Of a stretch of 8,647 nt of DNA, positions 1 to 8,647 are shown piece by piece. The stretch lies in IMG/VR virus record IMGVR_UViG_2660238215_000009; one strand, 5' to 3'. Each line of letters begins with the position of its first letter. Position 1 is the first letter of the stretch. Source of the DNA: a virus. Its lineage: Duplodnaviria; Heunggongvirae; Uroviricota; Caudoviricetes. The translations under genes were made by a program, and so were the position numbers. Under the pieces are notes generated by a model, which searched no databases, was not told the origin of the DNA, and saw only the letters and a list, made by a program, of their open reading frames with translations.

Positions 1-1152
1 TTGCAGGAAGGCAGTGGACGCACCCAGACTATCCGCATGATTCTGGTTGTCACGAACACCGAAGCCATCACGCTGAAAATCGACCCGTCTGTGGTTCTGG
101 CAACCCGCAAATATGTGGATGATAAAATCTCAGAGCACGAACAGTCACGACGTCACCCGGACGCCTCGCTGACCGTAAAAGGTTTTACTCAGTTAAGCAG
201 TGCAATTAACAGTGAATCAGAAACACTGGCCGCAACACCGAAAGCGGTTAAGGCTGCATATGACCTGGCTAACGGGAAATATACTGCCCAGAACGCCACC
301 ACAACACAAAAAGGGATTGTTCAGCTCAGTAGCGCCACGAACAGCACGTCTGAAACGCTGGCAGCGACACCAAAAGCTGTTAAGGTGGTAATGGATGAAA
401 CGAACAAGAAAGCACCATTAAACAGCCCGGCACTGACCGGAACGCCAACAACACCAACAGCGCCACAGGGGACTAATAATACCCAGATCGCAAGCACAGC
501 TTTCGTTATGGCCGCGATTGCCGCACTTGTAGATTCGTCACCTGATGCACTGAACACGCTGAACGAACTGGCTGCGGCGCTGGGCAATGACCCGAATTTT
601 GCGACCACCATGACTAACGCGCTTGCGGGTAAGCAACCGAAGGATGCCACCCTGACGGCGCTGGCGGAGCTTGCTACATCAGCAGANNNNNNNNNNNNNN
701 NNNNNNNNNNNNNNNNNNNNNNNNNNNNNNNNNNNNNNNNNNNNNNNNNNNNNNNNNNNNNNNNNNNNNNNNNNNNNNNNNNNNNNNNNNNNNNNNNNNN
801 NNNNNNNNNNNNNNNNNNNNNNNNNNNNNNNNNNNNNNNNNNNNNNNNNNNNNNNNNNNNNNNNNNNNNNNNNNNNNNNNNNNNNNNNNNNNNNNNNNNN
901 NNNNNNNNNNNNNGCATACAGGGGTGGTTAACAGGAAGTCATTATCATAATATTCGGTCATGGGACGCGTGGGATAACACGGTACTGGTGCCAAATGACA
1001 AAGGAGGGGATAGTCTGTTGTCGACAGATAACGCCGTCCGGCAAGGTGCAATTAACGGTAGATTTACCAGTCAATACAGAACGGAATCCTCAGTGGGGAA
1101 TGAAACCCGCCCACGCAATATTGCCTTCAATTATATTGTGAGAACCGCATAA
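1..1152 (+). CDS. Tail fibre protein, 5'-partial. Conserved P2 gpH / Mu S / lambda Stf-type N-terminal region, then a masked segment, then a variable tip ending in the shared C-terminal motif
   Basis: Long ORF with tandem ATPKAVK / SSATNSTSETLAATPKAVK-type repeats and ...NTLNELAAALGNDPNFATTMTNALAGKQPKDATLTALA, characteristic of the conserved N-terminal part of myovirus side tail fibres. Ends ...ETRPRNIAFNYIVRTA, the same C-terminal motif as the three minus-strand cassettes. The TTG at position 1 is almost certainly not the real start; the gene begins upstream of the window. Stop TAA at 1150-1152. Confidence 0.85.
   Translation: MQEGSGRTQTIRMILVVTNTEAITLKIDPSVVLATRKYVDDKISEHEQSRRHPDASLTVKGFTQLSSAINSESETLAATPKAVKAAYDLANGKYTAQNATTTQKGIVQLSSATNSTSETLAATPKAVKVVMDETNKKAPLNSPALTGTPTTPTAPQGTNNTQIASTAFVMAAIAALVDSSPDALNTLNELAAALGNDPNFATTMTNALAGKQPKDATLTALAELATSAXXXXXXXXXXXXXXXXXXXXXXXXXXXXXXXXXXXXXXXXXXXXXXXXXXXXXXXXXXXXXXXXXXXXXXXXXXXXXIQGWLTGSHYHNIRSWDAWDNTVLVPNDKGGDSLLSTDNAVRQGAINGRFTSQYRTESSVGNETRPRNIAFNYIVRTA
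687..913. other. Run of 227 N (masked or unresolved sequence) inside the tail-fibre CDS
   Basis: Directly visible. Reading frame is preserved across it (bases 685..915 = 77 codons), and its position and length match the ~220-bp conserved site-plus-collar-domain block seen at the 5' end of each minus-strand cassette. Confidence 0.99.
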
Positions 1153-1763
1153 TGAATAACGCGATATTAAATGATGACCTTATTGCCGTACAGGCAGGAA
1201 ACATCGTCGTTTATAACTATGATGGTGAAACACGGGAATATATTTCCGAATCAACTGAATATCTTGCTGTGGGTGTCGGTATTCCGGCAAATTCCTGTTT
1301 AGATGCCCCGGGCGCACATAAAGCGGGCTATGCTATCCGCCGTTCGGAGAATTTAAGTTCATGGGAGTATGCGCCAGACCATCGTGGTGAAACCGTCTAT
1401 AACACTGACACGGGAAACACCGAAGAAATCACGACGCTGGGTGACTACCCGAAAAATACAACCACTATCGCCCCGTTAACACCATACGATAAATGGGATG
1501 GTGAAAAATGGGTGACAGATACTGAGGCACAACATGGTGCCGCAGTAGAAGCGGCAGAAACCAAGCGCCAGTCACTGGCTGATGCGGCAATGGCTTCCAT
1601 AAGTCTGATTCAGTTGAAGTTGCAGGCCGGGCGGAAGTTGACGCAGGCAGAAACCACCCGGCTTAACGCCGTGCTGGATTATATAGACGCACTGAACGCA
1701 ATGGATATAAACATGGCACCAGATATCAACTGGCCGGAAATACCACTGGCAGCAGCCAGTTGA
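1152..1763 (+). CDS. tfa: Tail fibre assembly chaperone (Tfa; P2 gpG / Mu U / TfaE family)
   Basis: 203-aa ORF with ATG overlapping the fibre stop (TAATG at 1150-1154), implying translational coupling. Motifs typical of Tfa proteins as recalled: ...DHRGETVYNTDTG...KWDGEKWVTDTEA...ETKRQSL...APDINWPEIP. Stop TGA at 1761-1763. Confidence 0.85.
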   Translation: MNNAILNDDLIAVQAGNIVVYNYDGETREYISESTEYLAVGVGIPANSCLDAPGAHKAGYAIRRSENLSSWEYAPDHRGETVYNTDTGNTEEITTLGDYPKNTTTIAPLTPYDKWDGEKWVTDTEAQHGAAVEAAETKRQSLADAAMASISLIQLKLQAGRKLTQAETTRLNAVLDYIDALNAMDINMAPDINWPEIPLAAAS

Positions 1764-1769
1764 ATATAA

Positions 1770-2246
1770 CTAAGCCGCCCTCACGATATAGTTAAATGCA
1801 ATATTGCGGGGGCGGGTTTCACTACCACCTGTGTTACCAATACTTCCTCGTGAATGAAGCGTTGGTGATGGAATCAAACTCCCTCCTGTATTTGTGGCAT
1901 CAAGCCCCCTGCCTTGTGTATATGTTTTTTTGAAAATCGTGGCCAACTCCCATTCATCCTTTGTGTCATATCCATCGTTAGCTACAACAATATGGCGGTG
2001 TTTTTCCAACATCCCGGTTTGAATGCTCAATAAAGCGCGTGCTGCATCAATTCCTCGCCCATCATCCCAGCCACGGATAAATTCACCGCGTAAATCTGGT
2101 AATTTATTGGTGGGGTAGGCCTTTGCCAGTTTGGGATACATTTCAGAAGAAAATGCTGCACCGTTACATTTCAGCCAGCCCGTTGGTGGTGTAGCTGAGG
2201 GCCACGGAACGGGTACACCAACGGGCAACGCAGAGCCTTCCCCCAA
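1770..2246 (-). CDS. Silent alternative tail-fibre tip cassette 1 (tail-collar domain + variable region + shared C-terminal motif); no own promoter or RBS
   Basis: Minus-strand frame encodes (HENVG)LGEGSALPVGVPVPWPSATPPTGWLKCNGAAFSSEMYPKLAKAYPTNKLPDLRGEFIRGWDDGRGIDA (phage tail-collar domain signature PxGWLxCxG...YPxL...LPDLRGxFxRG), then ~85 variable residues, then ...ETRPRNIAFNYIVRAA. The listed start is a TTG inside the crossover site with no Shine-Dalgarno; the frame stays open upstream to 2267. Stop TAG at 1770-1772, 6 nt from the tfa stop. Confidence 0.7.
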   Translation of the reverse strand: MGEGSALPVGVPVPWPSATPPTGWLKCNGAAFSSEMYPKLAKAYPTNKLPDLRGEFIRGWDDGRGIDAARALLSIQTGMLEKHRHIVVANDGYDTKDEWELATIFKKTYTQGRGLDATNTGGSLIPSPTLHSRGSIGNTGGSETRPRNIAFNYIVRAA

Positions 2247-2263
2247 ACCAACGTTTTCATGCG
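2044..2263. repeat. Conserved ~220-bp block, copy 1 of 3 direct repeats (collar-domain coding + crossover site)
   Basis: By-eye alignment with 2558..2777 and 2998..3216 shows long identical stretches (e.g. cccatcatcccagcc, acatttcagaagaaaatg, gcaccgttacatttcagcc, ggaacgggcacaccaacgggca, aaaccaacgttttc). Identity is estimated at roughly 85-90%, not computed. Confidence 0.85.
2238..2263 (-). other. Candidate 26-bp invertase crossover site S1 (TTCCCCCAAACC-AA-CGTTTTCATGCG)
   Basis: Matches the hix/gix/cix-type architecture as recalled (TTCnnnnAAACC - 2-bp core - GGTTTnnnnnAA): strong left half, AA core at 2250-2251, weaker right half. Sits at the cassette 1 / cassette 2 junction and contains the cassette 2 stop codon (TGA, 2257-2259). 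Confidence 0.55.
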
Positions 2264-2760
2264 GCTCTTACGATGTAATTAAATGCAACGTTGCGAGGGC
2301 GAGTTTCTGTACCTACATTTCCACTAATTTCACCAAACCGTTTTACATTACGAGAGCTAATGGCTCGTAGTGAGGAAGGCACCTTTAAACCGGGTTCGTC
2401 TGTTTTAACTATTCCCCCGTCCCCGTATGTAGCCAGTATTCCAGGGTTTACTCCTTCCCGTGCACTTCCCGCGGCAAGTCCATCCCCGGTCCATAATTCC
2501 ATATAGTGTGCATGATCCAAAATTGTGTGTGGCTGCCAATTAAGCAAAGCGCGGCCAGCATCCACCCCGCGCCCATCATCCCAGCCGCGAATAAATTCGC
2601 CCCGTAAATCCGGTAATTTATTGGCGGGGTAGGCCTTTGCCAGATTGGGGTACATTTCAGAAGAAAATGCTGCACCGTTACATTTCAGCCACCCCGCTGG
2701 CGGCGTGGCTGAAGGCCATGGAACGGGCACACCAACGGGCAGTGCAGAGCCTTCCCCCAA
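2257..2760 (-). CDS. Silent alternative tail-fibre tip cassette 2 (tail-collar domain + variable region + shared C-terminal motif)
   Basis: Encodes (HENVG)LGEGSALPVGVPVPWPSATPPAGWLKCNGAAFSSEMYPNLAKAYPANKLPDLRGEFIRGWDDGRGVDA, then a distinct ~100-aa variable region, then ...TETRPRNVAFNYIVRAA. Start position is a TTG within site S2; no RBS. Confidence 0.7.
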   Translation of the reverse strand: MGEGSALPVGVPVPWPSATPPAGWLKCNGAAFSSEMYPNLAKAYPANKLPDLRGEFIRGWDDGRGVDAGRALLNWQPHTILDHAHYMELWTGDGLAAGSAREGVNPGILATYGDGGIVKTDEPGLKVPSSLRAISSRNVKRFGEISGNVGTETRPRNVAFNYIVRAA

Positions 2761-2777
2761 ACCAACGTTTTCATGCT
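2558..2777. repeat. Conserved ~220-bp block, copy 2 of 3
   Basis: See copy 1; same internal order, ending in crossover site S2. Confidence 0.85.
2752..2777 (-). other. Candidate 26-bp invertase crossover site S2 (TTCCCCCAAACC-AA-CGTTTTCATGCT)
   Basis: Differs from S1 only at its last base; core AA at 2764-2765; contains the cassette 3 stop codon (TGA, 2771-2773). Confidence 0.55.
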
Positions 2778-3256
2778 GCCCTTACGATGTAATTAAACGC
2801 AATATTACGAGGACGAATGGTTACATAATTAACCCCATCACCTCGTGAAGGCCCTGCAAATGAAAAACGGGAAAAGCCTGGTTGGTTAGAAACAATTTGG
2901 TCATAGTTATTGATTGAATGACCAGACCCAATGTCGAAATTACCTCCGTAATGAGAAAAACTTGTACCATCCTGCCCAGAAAGCAGGGTACGTCCCGCAT
3001 CAATCCCGCGCCCATCATCCCAGCCACGGATAAATTCACCGCGTAAATCCGGTAATTTATTGGTGGGATAAGCCCTTGCCAGTCTGGGATACATTTCAGA
3101 AGAAAATGTTGCACCGTTACATTTCAGCCAGCCCGTTGGTGGTGTTGCTAAGGGCCACGGAACGGGCACACCAACGGGCAGTGCAGAACCTTCTCCTAAA
3201 CCAACGTTTTCGTTTTTATCCCTACCTATACCAACTATGTATTTTTCACGAAACAA
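2771..3256 (-). CDS. Silent alternative tail-fibre tip cassette 3 (tail-collar domain + Gly/Ser-rich variable region + shared C-terminal motif)
   Basis: Encodes ...NENVGLGEGSALPVGVPVPWPLATPPTGWLKCNGATFSSEMYPRLARAYPTNKLPDLRGEFIRGWDDGRGIDA, a variable region, then ...VTIRPRNIAFNYIVRAA. The listed 5' end (TTG at 3254-3256) has no Shine-Dalgarno; sequence upstream of site S3 is probably not translated. Confidence 0.65.
   Translation of the reverse strand: MFREKYIVGIGRDKNENVGLGEGSALPVGVPVPWPLATPPTGWLKCNGATFSSEMYPRLARAYPTNKLPDLRGEFIRGWDDGRGIDAGRTLLSGQDGTSFSHYGGNFDIGSGHSINNYDQIVSNQPGFSRFSFAGPSRGDGVNYVTIRPRNIAFNYIVRAA
2998..3216. repeat. Conserved ~220-bp block, copy 3 of 3
   Basis: See copy 1; the most diverged copy (e.g. 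ttctcctaaacc vs ttcccccaaacc in the site). Confidence 0.85.
3191..3216 (-). other. Candidate 26-bp invertase crossover site S3 (TTCTCCTAAACC-AA-CGTTTTCGTTTT), closest to the invertase gene
   Basis: Same architecture as S1 and S2, core AA at 3203-3204. Lies 55 bp upstream of the invertase ATG, analogous to gixR/cixR next to gin/cin. Confidence 0.5.
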
Positions 3257-3270
3257 AGAGGATGTTTTTT
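3217..3270 (+). promoter_or_regulatory. Invertase 5' region: Shine-Dalgarno AAAGAGGA (3255-3262) and presumed promoter next to site S3
   Basis: AAAGAGGA sits 8 nt before the ATG at 3271. The AT-rich stretch has -10-like hexamers (tatacc at 3227-3232, tatgta at 3236-3241), but no clear -35 was identified; the promoter is inferred. Confidence 0.35.
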
Positions 3271-3870
3271 ATGCAAATTGGCTATATTCGTGTGTCAACA
3301 AATGACCAGAACACGGATTTACAACGCAATGCACTGAACTGCGCAGGATGTGAACTGATTTTTGAAGATAAAATCAGCGGAACGAAATCAGCCAGACCGG
3401 GATTGAAAAAACTGCTCAGAACGCTATCAGAAGGAGATACGCTGGTTGTCTGGAAGCTGGACAGACTGGGCAGAAGTATGAAACACCTGATCACGCTTAT
3501 TGAGGAATTGCGGGAAAAAGGTGTTAATTTCCGTAGTCTGACGGACAGCATTGACACATCAACACCCATGGGGCGTTTCTTTTTTCACGTCATGGGGGCT
3601 TTAGCCGAAATGGAACGTGAATTAATTGTAGAGCGTACACTGGCCGGGCTGGCAGCAGCACGCGAACAAGGACGCATTGGCGGACGTCGCCCGAAGTTGA
3701 CAAAAGAACAACACGAGCAAATAGCGAGGCTGATTAAAAACGGTCATGACAGGAAACAACTGGCGATCATTTACGACATCGGCATATCGACGATTTATCG
3801 TTATCACCCTGTAGGCGATATACAGGCTGAAGAAACAACCAGGCAGACTCAGGAAAATGAAAACCGCTAA
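3271..3870 (+). CDS. pin: Serine-recombinase DNA invertase (Pin/Gin/Hin/Cin family)
   Basis: 199 aa: MQIGYIRVSTNDQNTDLQRNALNCAGCELIFEDKISG...LVVWKLDRLGRSMKHLITLIEELREKGVNFRSLTDSIDTSTPMGRFFFHVMGALAEMERELIVERT...GRIGGRRPKLT..., near-identical in motifs to enterobacterial Pin/Gin invertases as recalled. Catalytic Ser9 is codon 3295-3297; C-terminal HTH region present. True start is the ATG at 3271 (RBS, family N-terminus), not the longer listed ORF from 3076. Confidence 0.92.
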   Translation: MQIGYIRVSTNDQNTDLQRNALNCAGCELIFEDKISGTKSARPGLKKLLRTLSEGDTLVVWKLDRLGRSMKHLITLIEELREKGVNFRSLTDSIDTSTPMGRFFFHVMGALAEMERELIVERTLAGLAAAREQGRIGGRRPKLTKEQHEQIARLIKNGHDRKQLAIIYDIGISTIYRYHPVGDIQAEETTRQTQENENR

Positions 3871-3896: not shown

Positions 3897-4391
3897 TCAA
3901 AACAACCCTTTAACGGAGCTGGCCGCGCTGTTAAGGGATGATGTGACCTTATCTTTGAAGCCGGACAGCATATCACTGAACGATGAGGATTGCAGGCGCT
4001 CCCGCAAATCCTCATCACAGCGTTCAAGGGTCAGTGAAAATTCTATCTTTTTCGCCTTACCGTAGCGATCAAACTCGGAACGGGTCGTATTCGTTCCGGT
4101 CAGGACATACATGCCGTAAATCTGCCCGACGCCATCAATCAGAGGCCAGGGTCGTCCTGTATACGCCTGCGTGGTCAGCAGCGACAGCGACACTTCGCCA
4201 CCTGTAATTTCAGGATAAAGCACACCAGAAAGAACGATGCGATCATCACCTGCACCGATATACTGCCAGCTTGCTGAACGGTTAACGCGTTCATTTTTCA
4301 CATGCCGCCAGCTTTTGTTTTGCTGTAACTGCTGATGCGGCAGCGTGCGCAGCTCAAAAACAAACATGCCGTAGATCATCATCATGGCCAT
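3897..4391 (-). CDS. U: P2 gpU-like tail protein
   Basis: 164-aa ORF MAMMMIYGMFVFELRTLPHQQLQQNKSWRH...GVLYPEITGG..., resembling the P2 gpU family as recalled (MMM...FVF...Q..SWRH). Directly follows the tape-measure gene. The true start may be the ATG at 4385 (SD GGAG, 8-nt spacer) rather than 4391. Confidence 0.75.
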   Translation of the reverse strand: MAMMMIYGMFVFELRTLPHQQLQQNKSWRHVKNERVNRSASWQYIGAGDDRIVLSGVLYPEITGGEVSLSLLTTQAYTGRPWPLIDGVGQIYGMYVLTGTNTTRSEFDRYGKAKKIEFSLTLERCDEDLRERLQSSSFSDMLSGFKDKVTSSLNSAASSVKGLF

Positions 4392-4397
4392 GACTCC

Positions 4398-7238
4398 TCA
4401 ATCTTTATCGTAAAAACTGCCACGCCCGGCACGGGCGCGCCGTTCCATTTCTGCCCTGACCATTTCACCGACCAGTTTCGCCAGTTCGCGGGGATTCTGC
4501 GTAACAACGTTATGCAGATGAACATGAATTTCACCGCCAAATCCGGAGGCAACAGGCTCCCGGTTACGGGAAGTTACAGGAACTGATGCCACTGGAGATC
4601 GTATGGCCTCCGCCACCGGGCGGGAGCTGGCCGCAACAACAGGGACCAGCGCCGGAGGCAGCGGAGCCGGGACCACGGGTGTGATATTAATTGCGGGGGG
4701 CTTACTGACCTGCGCAATCTTCCGCTCCTGCCACTCCCCACGAACGGCAAGTGCGCGGGGCAGGTTCTTAAAGACAATATCGCCGGGGCCAATGCGTTTT
4801 TTCGTCTCCTCAACCAGCTTACCTGTGTTATCAGCAATTTTGCTGAGTCTGCGCAGCGTACCGGTATTGCTGTCTGTGAGCGGTTTATTGTCTTTGGGGT
4901 TATCACCTCCGGTACCATTGCCATTTTCCACAGGCTTCGGCGGATTGATTTTCGCCAGGTCCCCCTGAAGCAAGGCAACCTTGTCCTGAAGAATGGCCGC
5001 ACGCTGTGCGTCTTCGATTTTCTTGCGCGCCCTTTCCGCTTCATCCGGAAGGACGCCAAGTTTTTCAAGTATCCACGCCAGCGTATCCAGCAGCATTTTT
5101 GCAGGTGTCAGAACAAGCTGTAACGCACCGCCAAGAACGTTACCGAATATCTCGCCAGCACTGGTACATTTATCCAGCGTTTCCTTGCTGGACTCCATCG
5201 GTGACAGCAGCGATTTAAACCAGTTAAACACCTGGCTGATCCCGCTCCCGATTGCGTCAAAAACAGGACCAAACCGTTCAAAGGTTTCGCGCAACGGGGT
5301 CAGCCTTTCCATAATCCCGCTGAACACCCCGGCAAAAAATGCCCTGATGGGATCCCAGTATTTCCAGATAAGAACGGCAGCTCCGGCAAGCGCAGCCACG
5401 ATAAGACCAACCGGACTGAACAACGCCCCGATAGCGCCTCCCAGTAAAGAAACGGAACCCGTCACCATTCCCCATAGTGCTGGCAGAACCCTGACAGCAT
5501 TCATTGATCCGGTCAGGAGGGAAAAACCAAGACGCAGTTTTGCCAGCGGGCCAGCAAGCACACCAATAGCCAGCGACAACGAGCCAACCGTTGCAGTCAT
5601 TGCCAGCAGTGCACCGCCTGCAATCAGTAGCTGGCGCGTCAGTGCGGGATGGGCCTGCGCCAGCGCCGTCACCTTTGATACCACACGCGTGAGCCACTGC
5701 GTGACAGAACGCAGCGGACCGTCAATCAGATCTGCAATGCGGATGCGCAACCCTTCCCATGCACTGCTGAGTGATTTCAAATCGCCGTCAAGGTTGTTGG
5801 CCATAACCTTTGCCGTGCGTTCAGCCTCACCGCGCGCGCCTTCAAGTTCTTTTCTCAGTTTGGGTAAGGAGCCGTCACCTGCCGCATCAACGAGGGCCAT
5901 AAATGATGTGAAAGCCTCTTCTCCGGCAATGTCCTTAAAGAACGATACCCGGTCAACTTCCCCGTATTTGCGGGTAGCTTTATAAAGGTCAGCCAGCACA
6001 TCCTCCATCGGGCGCATTTTGCCCCCGGCATCCGAGACAGACACGCCAAGCTCTTTCAGCGCCTCTGCTGCCGCCTTTGGCGGTGATGCCAGACGAGCCA
6101 GGCTGGCACGCATTGCCGTACCAGCATCACTCCCCCTGATACCCATATTCGCCAGCACGCCCGCCATCGCTGCGGCCTGCTCCAGCGATATTCCCAGCTT
6201 ACCCGCCACCGGACCTGCATATTTCATGGTTTCACCCAGTGCGCGAAGGTCAGTGTTGGTACGGGTAAACGCTGCGGTGAGTGTGTCGCCGACCCGGTCC
6301 ATCTGGTCAGCAGAAAGACCGAACTGCGTCAGAATATTTGAGCCAATATCCGCCGTCTCACCGAGGTCCATACCGCCAGCCGTTGCCATGCTCAGTACGC
6401 CAGGGAGCGCAGCCTGAATGGCCTGTGGTGTGAAGCCAGCCATTGCAAGAAATGCCTGCCCACTGGCGGCATCGCCTGCGGTGAACTGCGTTTCAGAGCC
6501 AAGTTTTAACGCCTGCTCACGCAGCGCCTTAAACTGCGGGCTGTTTTTGTCGATTCGCGTCAGTGCCTGAACGCGGGACATCTCTTTCCCGAACCCGATC
6601 GCAGGCTGCAAAAAACGCCCGGCAGCATAGCCGCCCGCCGCTGCCGCACCAATTGCCAGCGCACCACCTGTTTTCAGTTTTCCCGCTGTTTCCTGCGCGC
6701 GCGAATACCGCTCACGCGCCTGCGTTACACGCGCAAGCGCCTGCCGTTCGCGTTCAAGCTGGTTGTTGTACTGTTCGGTGCGTCTGATGGCCTGCTGGAT
6801 GGTGTTATCGCTGCCTGTCAGGGAAATGCCGTGGCGTTTCAGCTCTCCGCCAATCTCCCGCATTTTCTGAATTTCCCGTGTGCGCGATTCATTCAGGCGT
6901 TCAAGCCGGGTGCTTAACTGCTGCATCAGCTTTTGTTGTTTTTCGCTGAGCACTGTACCCGTGCGTTGTAACTGATTAAGGGCGTTAAGCTGGCGTCGTG
7001 CTTTCACGATACCCGCATCCGCTTTACTGACAGCGTCGCGGGCGCGCTCAAATGAACGCGCCTGACGCTCGAGATTTTTGATCGCCCCCTGCGTTCGCTG
7101 GATGGAGTCACCAAACTGCCCCATCAGGCGGCGGGCGTTTTCGGCAGGCCGGGTCAGCCTGTCAACGGCGCTGAAAGCGACCCGGATATCAAGAGTCTTC
7201 ATTGTCTGCATTCCCGCTGCGAAGTGCCGCCCGCTCAC
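4398..7238 (-). CDS. T: Tail tape measure protein (P2 gpT-like)
   Basis: 946-aa ORF, Ala/Gly/Leu-rich with long hydrophobic helical stretches and coiled-coil-like Q/R/E-rich N-terminal region; located downstream of the E/E' frameshift pair as in all long-tailed phages. Start uncertain: GTG at 7238, or ATG at 7211 or 7202; overlaps the end of E'. Confidence 0.85.
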   Translation of the reverse strand: MSGRHFAAGMQTMKTLDIRVAFSAVDRLTRPAENARRLMGQFGDSIQRTQGAIKNLERQARSFERARDAVSKADAGIVKARRQLNALNQLQRTGTVLSEKQQKLMQQLSTRLERLNESRTREIQKMREIGGELKRHGISLTGSDNTIQQAIRRTEQYNNQLERERQALARVTQARERYSRAQETAGKLKTGGALAIGAAAAGGYAAGRFLQPAIGFGKEMSRVQALTRIDKNSPQFKALREQALKLGSETQFTAGDAASGQAFLAMAGFTPQAIQAALPGVLSMATAGGMDLGETADIGSNILTQFGLSADQMDRVGDTLTAAFTRTNTDLRALGETMKYAGPVAGKLGISLEQAAAMAGVLANMGIRGSDAGTAMRASLARLASPPKAAAEALKELGVSVSDAGGKMRPMEDVLADLYKATRKYGEVDRVSFFKDIAGEEAFTSFMALVDAAGDGSLPKLRKELEGARGEAERTAKVMANNLDGDLKSLSSAWEGLRIRIADLIDGPLRSVTQWLTRVVSKVTALAQAHPALTRQLLIAGGALLAMTATVGSLSLAIGVLAGPLAKLRLGFSLLTGSMNAVRVLPALWGMVTGSVSLLGGAIGALFSPVGLIVAALAGAAVLIWKYWDPIRAFFAGVFSGIMERLTPLRETFERFGPVFDAIGSGISQVFNWFKSLLSPMESSKETLDKCTSAGEIFGNVLGGALQLVLTPAKMLLDTLAWILEKLGVLPDEAERARKKIEDAQRAAILQDKVALLQGDLAKINPPKPVENGNGTGGDNPKDNKPLTDSNTGTLRRLSKIADNTGKLVEETKKRIGPGDIVFKNLPRALAVRGEWQERKIAQVSKPPAINITPVVPAPLPPALVPVVAASSRPVAEAIRSPVASVPVTSRNREPVASGFGGEIHVHLHNVVTQNPRELAKLVGEMVRAEMERRARAGRGSFYDKD

Positions 7239-7425
7239 GCCAGCTAACCACTTCGCCGGGCGTCATCATGAAGATTTCGGCGGGCGACCAGTTAAAAATA
7301 ACGGCAATATCTGCCACAAAGTCTTCTATGTGCTCAAAGCACACAACCGTGATCAGGCTTCCGTCGCCTGTTCGTTCTTCCCGCCAGAGTCCGCACCGCT
7401 CAAAAAATTTACGGCAACCACACAT
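7189..7425 (-). CDS. E': E' extension frame of the tail assembly chaperone; expressed only as an E+E' fusion by -1 frameshifting
   Basis: ORF in the -1 frame relative to E, overlapping its 3' end and the tape-measure start. After the slip the sequence reads ...NFL-ERCGLWREERTGDGSLITVV..., which matches this ORF. Stop at 7189-7191. Confidence 0.7.
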   Translation of the reverse strand: MCGCRKFFERCGLWREERTGDGSLITVVCFEHIEDFVADIAVIFNWSPAEIFMMTPGEVVSWRERAALRSGNADNEDS

Positions 7426-7718
7426 AACTGAATAAAGTCACGGGATGCCATTTTTTTGATCGTCACTTCATCCAGTCGCGGTGATGTCACGCGTGACAGC
7501 AGCGTAAACATGGATTCCGCTTTCAGATTCAGCACATCAGACAGCGACAAATCTCGCAGAGATCCAGCCTGCTCAATAGCCCCGGTGATCTCCACATACG
7601 TGATTTTTTCGCCGCCTCGCTCAATTGGTTGGGTAAGTTTTACGCCACGCTCACTGGTTTCTTTCACAGTGTCAGCAACTACCGTGTTTTCGGTATCGAT
7701 GTTTTTCGTCTCTTTCAT
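7353..7718 (-). CDS. E: Tail assembly chaperone (P2 gpE-like)
   Basis: 121-aa acidic ORF immediately upstream of the tape-measure gene with a strong RBS (AAGGAG, 7-nt spacer) before the ATG at 7716-7718; contains the slippery site near its 3' end. Confidence 0.8.
   Translation of the reverse strand: MKETKNIDTENTVVADTVKETSERGVKLTQPIERGGEKITYVEITGAIEQAGSLRDLSLSDVLNLKAESMFTLLSRVTSPRLDEVTIKKMASRDFIQLCVVAVNFLSGADSGGKNEQATEA
7401..7407 (-). other. Programmed -1 ribosomal frameshift slippery heptamer T_TTT_TTG (minus strand)
   Basis: Minus-strand sequence AAT TTT TTG AGC (N-F-L-S in the E frame). An X_XXY_YYZ heptamer at the point where the E and E' frames overlap, the same type of site described for the P2 E/E+E' pair. 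Confidence 0.75.
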
Positions 7719-7772
7719 CAGGAAACTCCTTTCAGTCAGAGGCGACGCACTGCGCCGCCTGCATATTACTTA

Positions 7773-8285
7773 TCAGCCAAGCCCAAGCGCGGAACGGATG
7801 CGATCGGGCACAATGTCCTTGCCGTCCTTCCGGTAAATGAAGTTCAGCAGGTCAATCTCCCACAGCGGGCGATCGTTAACGCTCAGCTTGTAGTAGGTGT
7901 TTTTAATGGCGTAAGAGTGTGATGTGGCTTCGCCCTGTTTGGCTTCCCCCATATCAATTTCCGTCACACGTCCGCGCATTTCGACTTCATACAGGTCGCT
8001 TTCTGCATCGGTGTAGTATTCACCCGCAAAACGCAGCAGCGTGCCGTCAATCGTGCCGCCATACTTAAGGAACAGCTCACGAACTGCGCCCCCCATGACA
8101 AAGCTCGCATCAAGCGCGGAGTCGTCCAGACCGAGATCAATACTTACCGCACCCATCATGCCACCACCCCAGTAGCTGTCGGTTTTGCGCGTCAGCTTAG
8201 GCAGAGTGACGGACGTCACCTTACCCACTTCGTTTTCACCATCCACAAACAGCGTAAAAAAGCGAAGATGTTTTGGCACAGCCAT
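7773..8285 (-). CDS. FII: Major tail tube protein (P2 gpFII-like)
   Basis: 170-aa ORF MAVPKHLRFFTLFVDGENEVGKVTSVTLPKLTRKTDSYWGGGMMGAV..., resembling contractile-tail tube proteins. ATG at 8283-8285 overlaps the sheath stop (TGATG). Confidence 0.85.
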   Translation of the reverse strand: MAVPKHLRFFTLFVDGENEVGKVTSVTLPKLTRKTDSYWGGGMMGAVSIDLGLDDSALDASFVMGGAVRELFLKYGGTIDGTLLRFAGEYYTDAESDLYEVEMRGRVTEIDMGEAKQGEATSHSYAIKNTYYKLSVNDRPLWEIDLLNFIYRKDGKDIVPDRIRSALGLG

Positions 8286-8647
8286 CAGGCACCTCCCAGC
8301 ACCGCAAATGCGGGTTCAAAGTATTCATCAGTAAACGTCTGGTAAAGCTCCATATCTTCCAGCGGGGGAACAGGCGTATATTTGTAGCGAATACGCACAC
8401 GCCCCTGACGTAAATCCGTGGTGCTGTTATCCACCACGTCATACCAGCACTCCGCGCCAATCAGTTTCCCGGCAGTAACCAGTGAATCCAGTTTTGCCCT
8501 GATGGCACTGATAACATCCTTCACGTTCGCAGGCGTCAGTGGACTGTCGATGGTTTCAAACTGCGCTTCCGCAATTGAATCAGCCAACACCTGTGCGGTT
8601 CGGGTATACACCTCAAAGATGTAGGCGTTCGTTTCCGGTGTGCGGTT
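8285..8647 (-). CDS. FI: Tail sheath protein (P2 gpFI-like), C-terminal part; 5' end lies beyond the window
   Basis: Frame is open from the window edge (8647) to TGA at 8285-8287; C-terminal sequence ...RVRIRYKYTPVPPLEDMELYQTFTDEYFEPAFAVLGGA. Position immediately upstream of the tube gene fits sheath-tube order. Confidence 0.75.
   Translation of the reverse strand, partial: NRTPETNAYIFEVYTRTAQVLADSIAEAQFETIDSPLTPANVKDVISAIRAKLDSLVTAGKLIGAECWYDVVDNSTTDLRQGRVRIRYKYTPVPPLEDMELYQTFTDEYFEPAFAVLGGA

Follow-up and report, generated by a model that had tools for sequence, protein, structure and literature searches.

A scaffold gap in the multiple-site tail-fibre inversion array of a P2-like Escherichia coli prophage, and its content as read from related loci

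Tail-fibre inversion switches have been known since Mu, P1 and p15B. In the C segment of P1 (Cin), the G segment of Mu (Gin) and the P segment of e14 (Pin), the fibre gene keeps its constant 5' part outside the switch and has its alternative 3' parts within it, and recombination sites of the 12-2-12 bp type with an AA/TT core flank a switch that has two sites, two cassettes and two tfa genes. The Min multiple-inversion system belongs to plasmid p15B and to P1-like plasmid prophages (Sandmeier, Iida and Arber, 1990, as cited in PMC5903667 and PMC6906374). In a P2-like prophage of the EPEC strain E2348/69, Goldberg et al. (2014, PMC4272514) observed inversion in culture of a shufflon-like locus whose three inverted repeats go with four variants and three alternative C-termini. 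The R64 shufflon also picks one of several C-terminal segments by overlapping inversions, but the likeness is an analogy only; its recombinase, Rci, is a tyrosine recombinase, its sites are the sfx sites, and its target is a pilus adhesin.

The window, by which we mean the whole stretch of 8,647 nt analysed here, carries, in a P2-like prophage, a multiple-site inversion system of the Din family, of the same type as Min of p15B. As in Min, a Din-family invertase lies beside more than two crossover sites, and overlapping inversions exchange the alternative 3' cassettes of the tail-fibre gene; the P1 and p15B systems are plasmid-borne, whereas the host element here is a chromosomal P2-like prophage of E. 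coli. The window's lineage has five collar-type cassettes around a single tfa gene, from which our inversion model yields 48 isomers, and p15B is reported to have 240. The cassette region is about 88-90% identical in DNA to plasmids of about 90-100 kb, presumably P1-like, on which tail-fibre and recombinase genes are found. The E2348/69 locus is the same kind of element in the same host species, and an E2348/69 genome matches the H/tfa region of the window at 98.5%, although the copy so matched, which has a simple 332-nt junction between H and domain A, may or may not lie in the prophage described in PMC4272514. The window's lineage differs from it in having more sites and more cassettes (four visible in the window, five in its clone-mates). 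The invertases of P1, Mu and e14 are homologous to that of the window, and the sites are alike in their 12-2-12 layout and AA/TT core, as is the division of the fibre gene into an outer constant and inner alternative parts; unlike those two-site switches, the locus has at least four sites, one tfa gene and promoterless single cassettes. Membership in the R64 type of shufflon was considered and rejected, since the only recombinase of the locus is a serine recombinase. Nothing here departs from a kind already known, and the same prophage has been fully sequenced in many genomes. What sets the window apart is a run of Ns between the constant part of H and domain A; this is an assembly artefact, and its content can be read from relatives. 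For that comparison about 90 related loci were gathered from complete E. coli genomes, IMG/VR, metagenomes and NCBI drafts.

Table 1. Positions of the tail-fibre inversion locus and the gap in the window
Feature	Position	Strand	Basis or remarks
H, constant part (about codons 113-340)	1..686	+	ORF; 100% identity to H of related loci L001, L003 and L072
Scaffold gap, 227 N	687..913	.	identity with LKDC01000029.1; content in relatives
Variable C-terminal (receptor-binding) domain A	914..1152	+	ORF; preceded by a collar block in 37/37 relatives
tfa, tail-fibre assembly gene	1152..1763	+	Pfam Caudo_TAP; orientation to H varies among relatives
Silent cassette c1	1770..2263	-	variable part, collar about 2036..2237, site 2238..2263
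Silent cassette c2	2257..2777	-	own collar block, site 2752..2777
Silent cassette c3	2771..3216	-	own collar block, site 3191..3216; adjoins the invertase
Serine DNA invertase, Din family (Cin/Min/Gin/Pin/Hin-like), 199 aa	3271..3870	+	Pfam Resolvase and HTH_7

The visible part of H (Table 1) is about 90% identical in DNA to P2 gpH and constitutes the first contig of the scaffold, which ends about 104 nt before a crossover site; a full-length relative of H matches the Pfam families Phage_tail_fib, Phage_fiber_2 and Collar. The locus has the make-up of a P2-type tail region, with an H that combines the P2 N-terminal domain with fibre repeats, baseplate genes upstream and tfa (G) after it. Relatives carry GpR, S, V, W, J and I upstream of H, in the order R-S-V-W-J-I-H, and the remainder of the window encodes on the minus strand P2-type gpU, tape measure, gpE, tube and sheath proteins. 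Four cassettes are visible (A, c1, c2 and c3), of which c1 to c3 are promoterless, with minus-strand reading frames at 1770..2246, 2257..2760 and 2771..~3207, respectively; a block of about 220-270 nt is present in three direct copies at 2032..3255. The tfa gene sits inside the invertible DNA, at the centre of a fixed A-tfa-c1 module. The peptide that follows the N-run begins IQGWLTGSHYHN..., and the preliminary description was right to place the start of a variable region there (IQGWLTGS...): the sequence aligns across the collar/variable boundary (marked by a slash) as ...GRGILS/IQGW... against ...ARALLS/IQTGM... of the silent cassettes.

The invertase is a small serine recombinase with an N-terminal resolvase domain that includes the catalytic serine and with a C-terminal helix-turn-helix, which is the composition of the Din family. 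It matches Pfam Resolvase with E = 2e-51, in addition to HTH_7, and the structures of Mu Gin (4M6F/3UJ3) match it over residues 1-185 with E = 1e-91. Its identity to P1 Cin is 73%; invertases encoded by plasmids of about 90 kb come closer, at about 97-98% over residues 1-181. From the alignment with Gin we take Ser9, within the N-terminus MQIGYIRVST, to be the putative catalytic serine. NCBIfam offered no specific family for either H or tfa, and the invertase matched its models only below the cutoff.

The three visible 26-bp crossover sites, TTCYCCYAAACC AA CGTTTTC..., start at 2238, 2752 and 3191 and all lie on the + strand, where 0.13 matches would be expected by chance. The c1 site reads TTCCCCCAAACC AA CGTTTTCATGCG on the + strand, and the c3 site reads TTCTCCTAAACC AA CGTTTTCGTTTT. 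No site in the inverted orientation was found anywhere in the visible window, even when three mismatches were allowed. Because inversion needs an inverted partner and none is visible, the partner site presumably lies under the Ns. In relatives, the site next to H reads CTTGATTACC TT GGTTTGGGGGAA in the + orientation. Downstream of GGTTT in this site the relatives diverge into different cassettes, which places the exchange point within the site. At the H junction and again at the invertase junction, a fixed flank is joined to a half-site that is specific to the cassette; the fixed flank next to the invertase, AACGTTTTCGTTTTTATCC, joins the half-site of c3 type or that of another cassette, depending on which cassette is last. 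P1 and P1-like phage records contained no annotated cix features.

Among near-identical prophages (99.5-100% identity in all parts) the same five cassettes occur in at least ten different orders. In all observed isomers the cassettes without exception point toward tfa, and A and c1 stay beside it. When exchange was allowed between any + site and any - site, the 48 isomers reached by the model included all of those observed, and each of the five tips could be fused to H. Because isomers exist that are reachable by site-to-site inversions and that carry swapped half-sites, we conclude that the segment inverts. The number of sites (three visible and at least one hidden) and of cassettes (four visible, and five in the clone-mates) is that of a Min-type system. 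By analogy with its family, the invertase would pair the H site, or any + site, with any - site; strands would be exchanged at the central AA/TT, with cleavage positions as in the family, and religated after a 180-degree rotation. The flipped DNA would always include tfa, and any of the five C-terminal tips could thereby be fused to H. Fis and an enhancer presumably assist inversion, as they do elsewhere in the family, where the enhancer acts in cis from within or close to the 5' end of the invertase gene. A scan of 3200..3600 with a degenerate Fis motif, which is a weak one, gave three strict matches and no pair with 48-bp spacing.

The N-run is the only one in the window. The reverse complement of LKDC01000029.1 (GCA_001440615.1), a WGS scaffold of a public E. 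coli draft whose whole record is 8647 nt, is the window itself, including the Ns at 687..913. Because the public record carries the same Ns, the run is a scaffold gap, joining a contig of 686 nt to a second contig of 7734 nt that is unbroken from domain A to the sheath gene. We rejected the possibility of a mask that the data provider had put in at true length, since LKDC01000029.1 already has the Ns. Gaps of unknown size are conventionally written as 100 N; because the length of this run differs from that convention, we take 227 to be a scaffolder's estimate rather than a measurement. The preliminary description had drawn attention to the preserved reading frame, and its coordinates and arithmetic hold (685..915 make up 77 codons, in frame with the ORF 1..1152). 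The length cannot serve as evidence, because it is a gap estimate, and with it the frame argument is void: the chance of a preserved frame is one in three, and the argument has no weight. The idea that a repeat caused an assembly problem fared better, the run being a scaffold gap in a public draft.

Both edges of the gap can be followed in relatives, the left through the last 24 nt before the gap (ending at 686), which occur 66 times, and the right through 37 copies. After the left flank ...CATCAGCAGA, all 66 continue with TAAACTCCCATATTTTACAGG..., and the continuation TAAACTCCC... stands next to the left flank in each of them (66/66). The sequence before the run, which had been taken as the end of the constant shaft, is therefore not its end in any left-flank copy; about 104 nt more, or 35 codons (DKLPYFTGADRAALTALTSVGRAILGKTSTQGVLDY), are hidden. 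The site motif ACCTTGGTTT always begins at offset 105 after the left flank (66/66), in agreement with the expectation that a crossover site in the + orientation lies under the Ns. A collar block ending in ...GGG[GT]CATCTTAA directly precedes the right flank in 37/37 copies, again as had been foreseen, and between the predicted hidden collar blocks and the reverse complement of 2044..2263 the identity is 88.4-89.0%, where 85-90% had been forecast.

The spacing of the two flanks, when both lie on the same strand, is 332, 771, 804, 846, 1243 or 1285 nt in relatives. The shortest interval is a direct fusion of H to A and occurs in L002, L012, L069, L075, L077 and several complete genomes, including that of E2348/69; in the larger ones (771, 804, 846, 1243 and 1285 nt) one or two other cassettes lie between H and A. 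Judged from these relatives, the hidden DNA would be at least 332 nt long and would contain the constant tail of H, the H-proximal site and one collar block, and, set against them, the run falls short by at least 105 nt. The expected length of 227 nt thus found no counterpart, as none of the 13 same-strand flank pairs among relatives is separated by that interval. For the gap to be truly 227 nt long, with one site and one collar block, H would have to lack the 35 codons through an in-frame deletion of 105 nt that brought the crossover site directly against ...ELATSA. It is true that 332 - 227 = 105 is a multiple of 3 and that 227 nt is nearly the length of a stretch that starts 2 nt ahead of the crossover core and closes with the collar block, a correspondence that may be a coincidence; but the constant tail is absent in 0/66 left-flank relatives, the Ns are an assembly gap of a draft record, and inspection of the sequence revealed no repeat or secondary site at 686 able to cause a deletion. 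Together with the distribution of intervals, these observations lead us to regard a true 227-nt gap as most improbable.

Which of the arrangements seen in relatives fills the gap was approached through the closest of them. One locus, L072 (GCA_031302955.2), is collinear with the window in one piece, matching 686/686 nt on the left and 7733/7734 nt on the right, that is, with one mismatch in 8420 nt; this sole difference over the visible bases is a private non-synonymous SNP in the window at 8171 (R39W in the tube protein). Its order is that of the window (A+ tfa+ c1- c2- c3- inv+), and the interval between its flanks is 804 nt. L072 was the only fully collinear relative found, and none of the complete E. 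coli genomes has the exact visible order of the window in one piece. Approximately the first 120 nt of the L072 interval consist of the constant tail of H and the H-proximal site; then follow the collar (X) and variable domain of a fifth cassette, cX, its stop codon and a spacer, and the interval ends with a second site in direct orientation (TTCCCCCAAACC AA CGTTTCTATGCC, in the opposite-strand reading) followed by the collar of A. It thus holds two collar copies, two sites and the whole of cassette cX, which ends H; sequences specific to cX include TTTCAGGAAGGCACTATCGTCTCCGG and the 30-mer TTTCAGGAAGGCACTATCGTCTCCGGTTTT.

On balance we lean, with some reserve, towards an interval of this 804-nt kind in the window, with the H tail, site, collar X, cX, stop codon, second site and collar A in that order and with domain A silent. 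The clone-mates that share SNP 8171 speak for it, as does the 804-nt interval of the collinear L072: the three clone-mates examined (L084, L085 and L087) all have cX, and two further contigs are reported to be similar to L084, which gives cX in 5/5 informative clone-mates. Because the second contig runs unbroken from A to the sheath gene, cX in the window could only lie in the gap. The hidden block is then probably not a fourth copy, as had been proposed, since the informative clone-mates have five cassettes. Domain A is expressed only if H is fused to it directly and is silent if cX lies in the gap; if the window has the same 804 nt as L072, the domain after the gap would be a silent cassette and not the expressed tip.

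Several observations count against the 804-nt interval, and some of them favor a gap of 332 nt, in which H is fused directly to A through its 35-codon tail, the site and collar A, and the locus has the four cassettes A, c1, c2 and c3 only. The estimate of 227 is much nearer to 332 than to 804, and ordinary paired-end links could hardly span 804 nt. With a 332-nt gap, the scaffolder would have set 227 too low; gap lengths estimated from paired ends are biased downward when a gap approaches the insert size. Exact 332-nt fusions exist in the relatives named above; 332 and 227 leave the same remainder on division by 3, so that the frame would be kept and H would have 531 aa. Moreover, four-cassette sets without cX, the same four as those visible here, occur in the same lineage (L073 and L058), and in the model the order of the window can be reached from them. 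Against a direct fusion stand the cX cassette in all five informative clone-mates with the private SNP and its presence in the interval of the only relatives with the exact visible order, namely L072 and five further contigs grouped with it by the same neighbouring genes. We therefore hold the 332-nt fusion to be quite possible but rather doubtful.

In the prophage, exact repeats of at least 21 nt are confined to positions 108-273 and 543-712 of the 804-nt interval, so that local repeats leave the contig ends at 686 and 914 unaccounted for, which is a further point against the 804-nt arrangement. It is also a point in favor of some other content, such as a different or new cassette before A, two cassettes, an insertion, or a chimeric scaffold join arising from a culture of mixed isomers or from a second related tail-fibre locus in the genome. 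Intervals of 771, 846, 1243 and 1285 nt, with c3, c2 or two cassettes before A, do exist in relatives, the array is often broken or odd in drafts (L012, L008, L080 and L019), and the sequence from about 673 onward is common to other elements. Yet c1, c2 and c3 are all present in the second contig, which leaves only cX of the known set, and the clone-mates give no sign of a sixth cassette; we consider other content quite unlikely. There is, likewise, only a slim chance that the gap conceals either a true 227 nt with a 35-codon deletion in H or a cassette absent from every sequenced clone-mate. The 804-nt interval with cX accordingly remains the reading that we prefer.

The SNP at 8171, which we used as the clone marker, is common to only 17 public contigs. 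It was through the exact tube protein with this SNP that LKDC01000029.1 was reached; an exact-pattern scan of genome contigs with the left flank had given 0 hits, and scans of viral and metagenome sequences had yielded relatives but no source record. The tube protein is of P2 type, its gene occupies 7773..8285 on the minus strand, and the substitution R39W falls in its YRGGG stretch.

A mosaic boundary lies near the left edge of the gap, at about 628..709 together with the hidden constant tail. The 90-100 kb plasmids match from about window position 628-673 onward, through the site and the collar, and many P2-like prophages cease to match about 23 nt past 686. From these alignments, the constant tail and the switch look like a module that has been exchanged between P2-like and P1-like elements. 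A plausible cause of the contig break at 686 is that the genome holds another, related fibre gene.

As a gap in a draft assembly, the N-run itself has little biological weight. The lessons concern the use of such records: the lengths of N-runs in drafts should not be used to argue for a reading frame, short-read assemblies regularly come out broken or scrambled at multi-cassette inversion arrays, and a domain that seems to be fused to H across a gap may be a silent cassette. In the drafts, L012 has a gap of 3018 N inside the cassette array (7615..10632), in L008 a collar cassette is fused to a P2 capsid ORF (4309..5532), L080 shows the constant part of H inverted between cassettes as well as a single N, and in L019 the A-tfa-c1 module is duplicated.

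The promoterless cassettes have been called as 'phage tail protein' coding sequences of 152-167 aa with TTG starts (1770..2246, 2257..2760 and 2771..3256, all on the minus strand); that these are independent genes is unlikely. The stop codon of A and the start codon of tfa overlap in TAATG at 1150-1154. On its two sides the tfa gene always has A and the convergent c1, and it is antisense to H in about half of the public isomers. Given this arrangement of A, tfa and the convergent c1, c1 and tfa could never be expressed together in cis, a geometry that poses the question whether the c1 tip needs the tfa chaperone.

The sheath-tube-E-T-U block (3897..8647 in the window, 6467..13306 in L072) is convergent with H and divergent from gpD. 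The canonical P2 gene order differs from this placement, which was identical across all relatives inspected.
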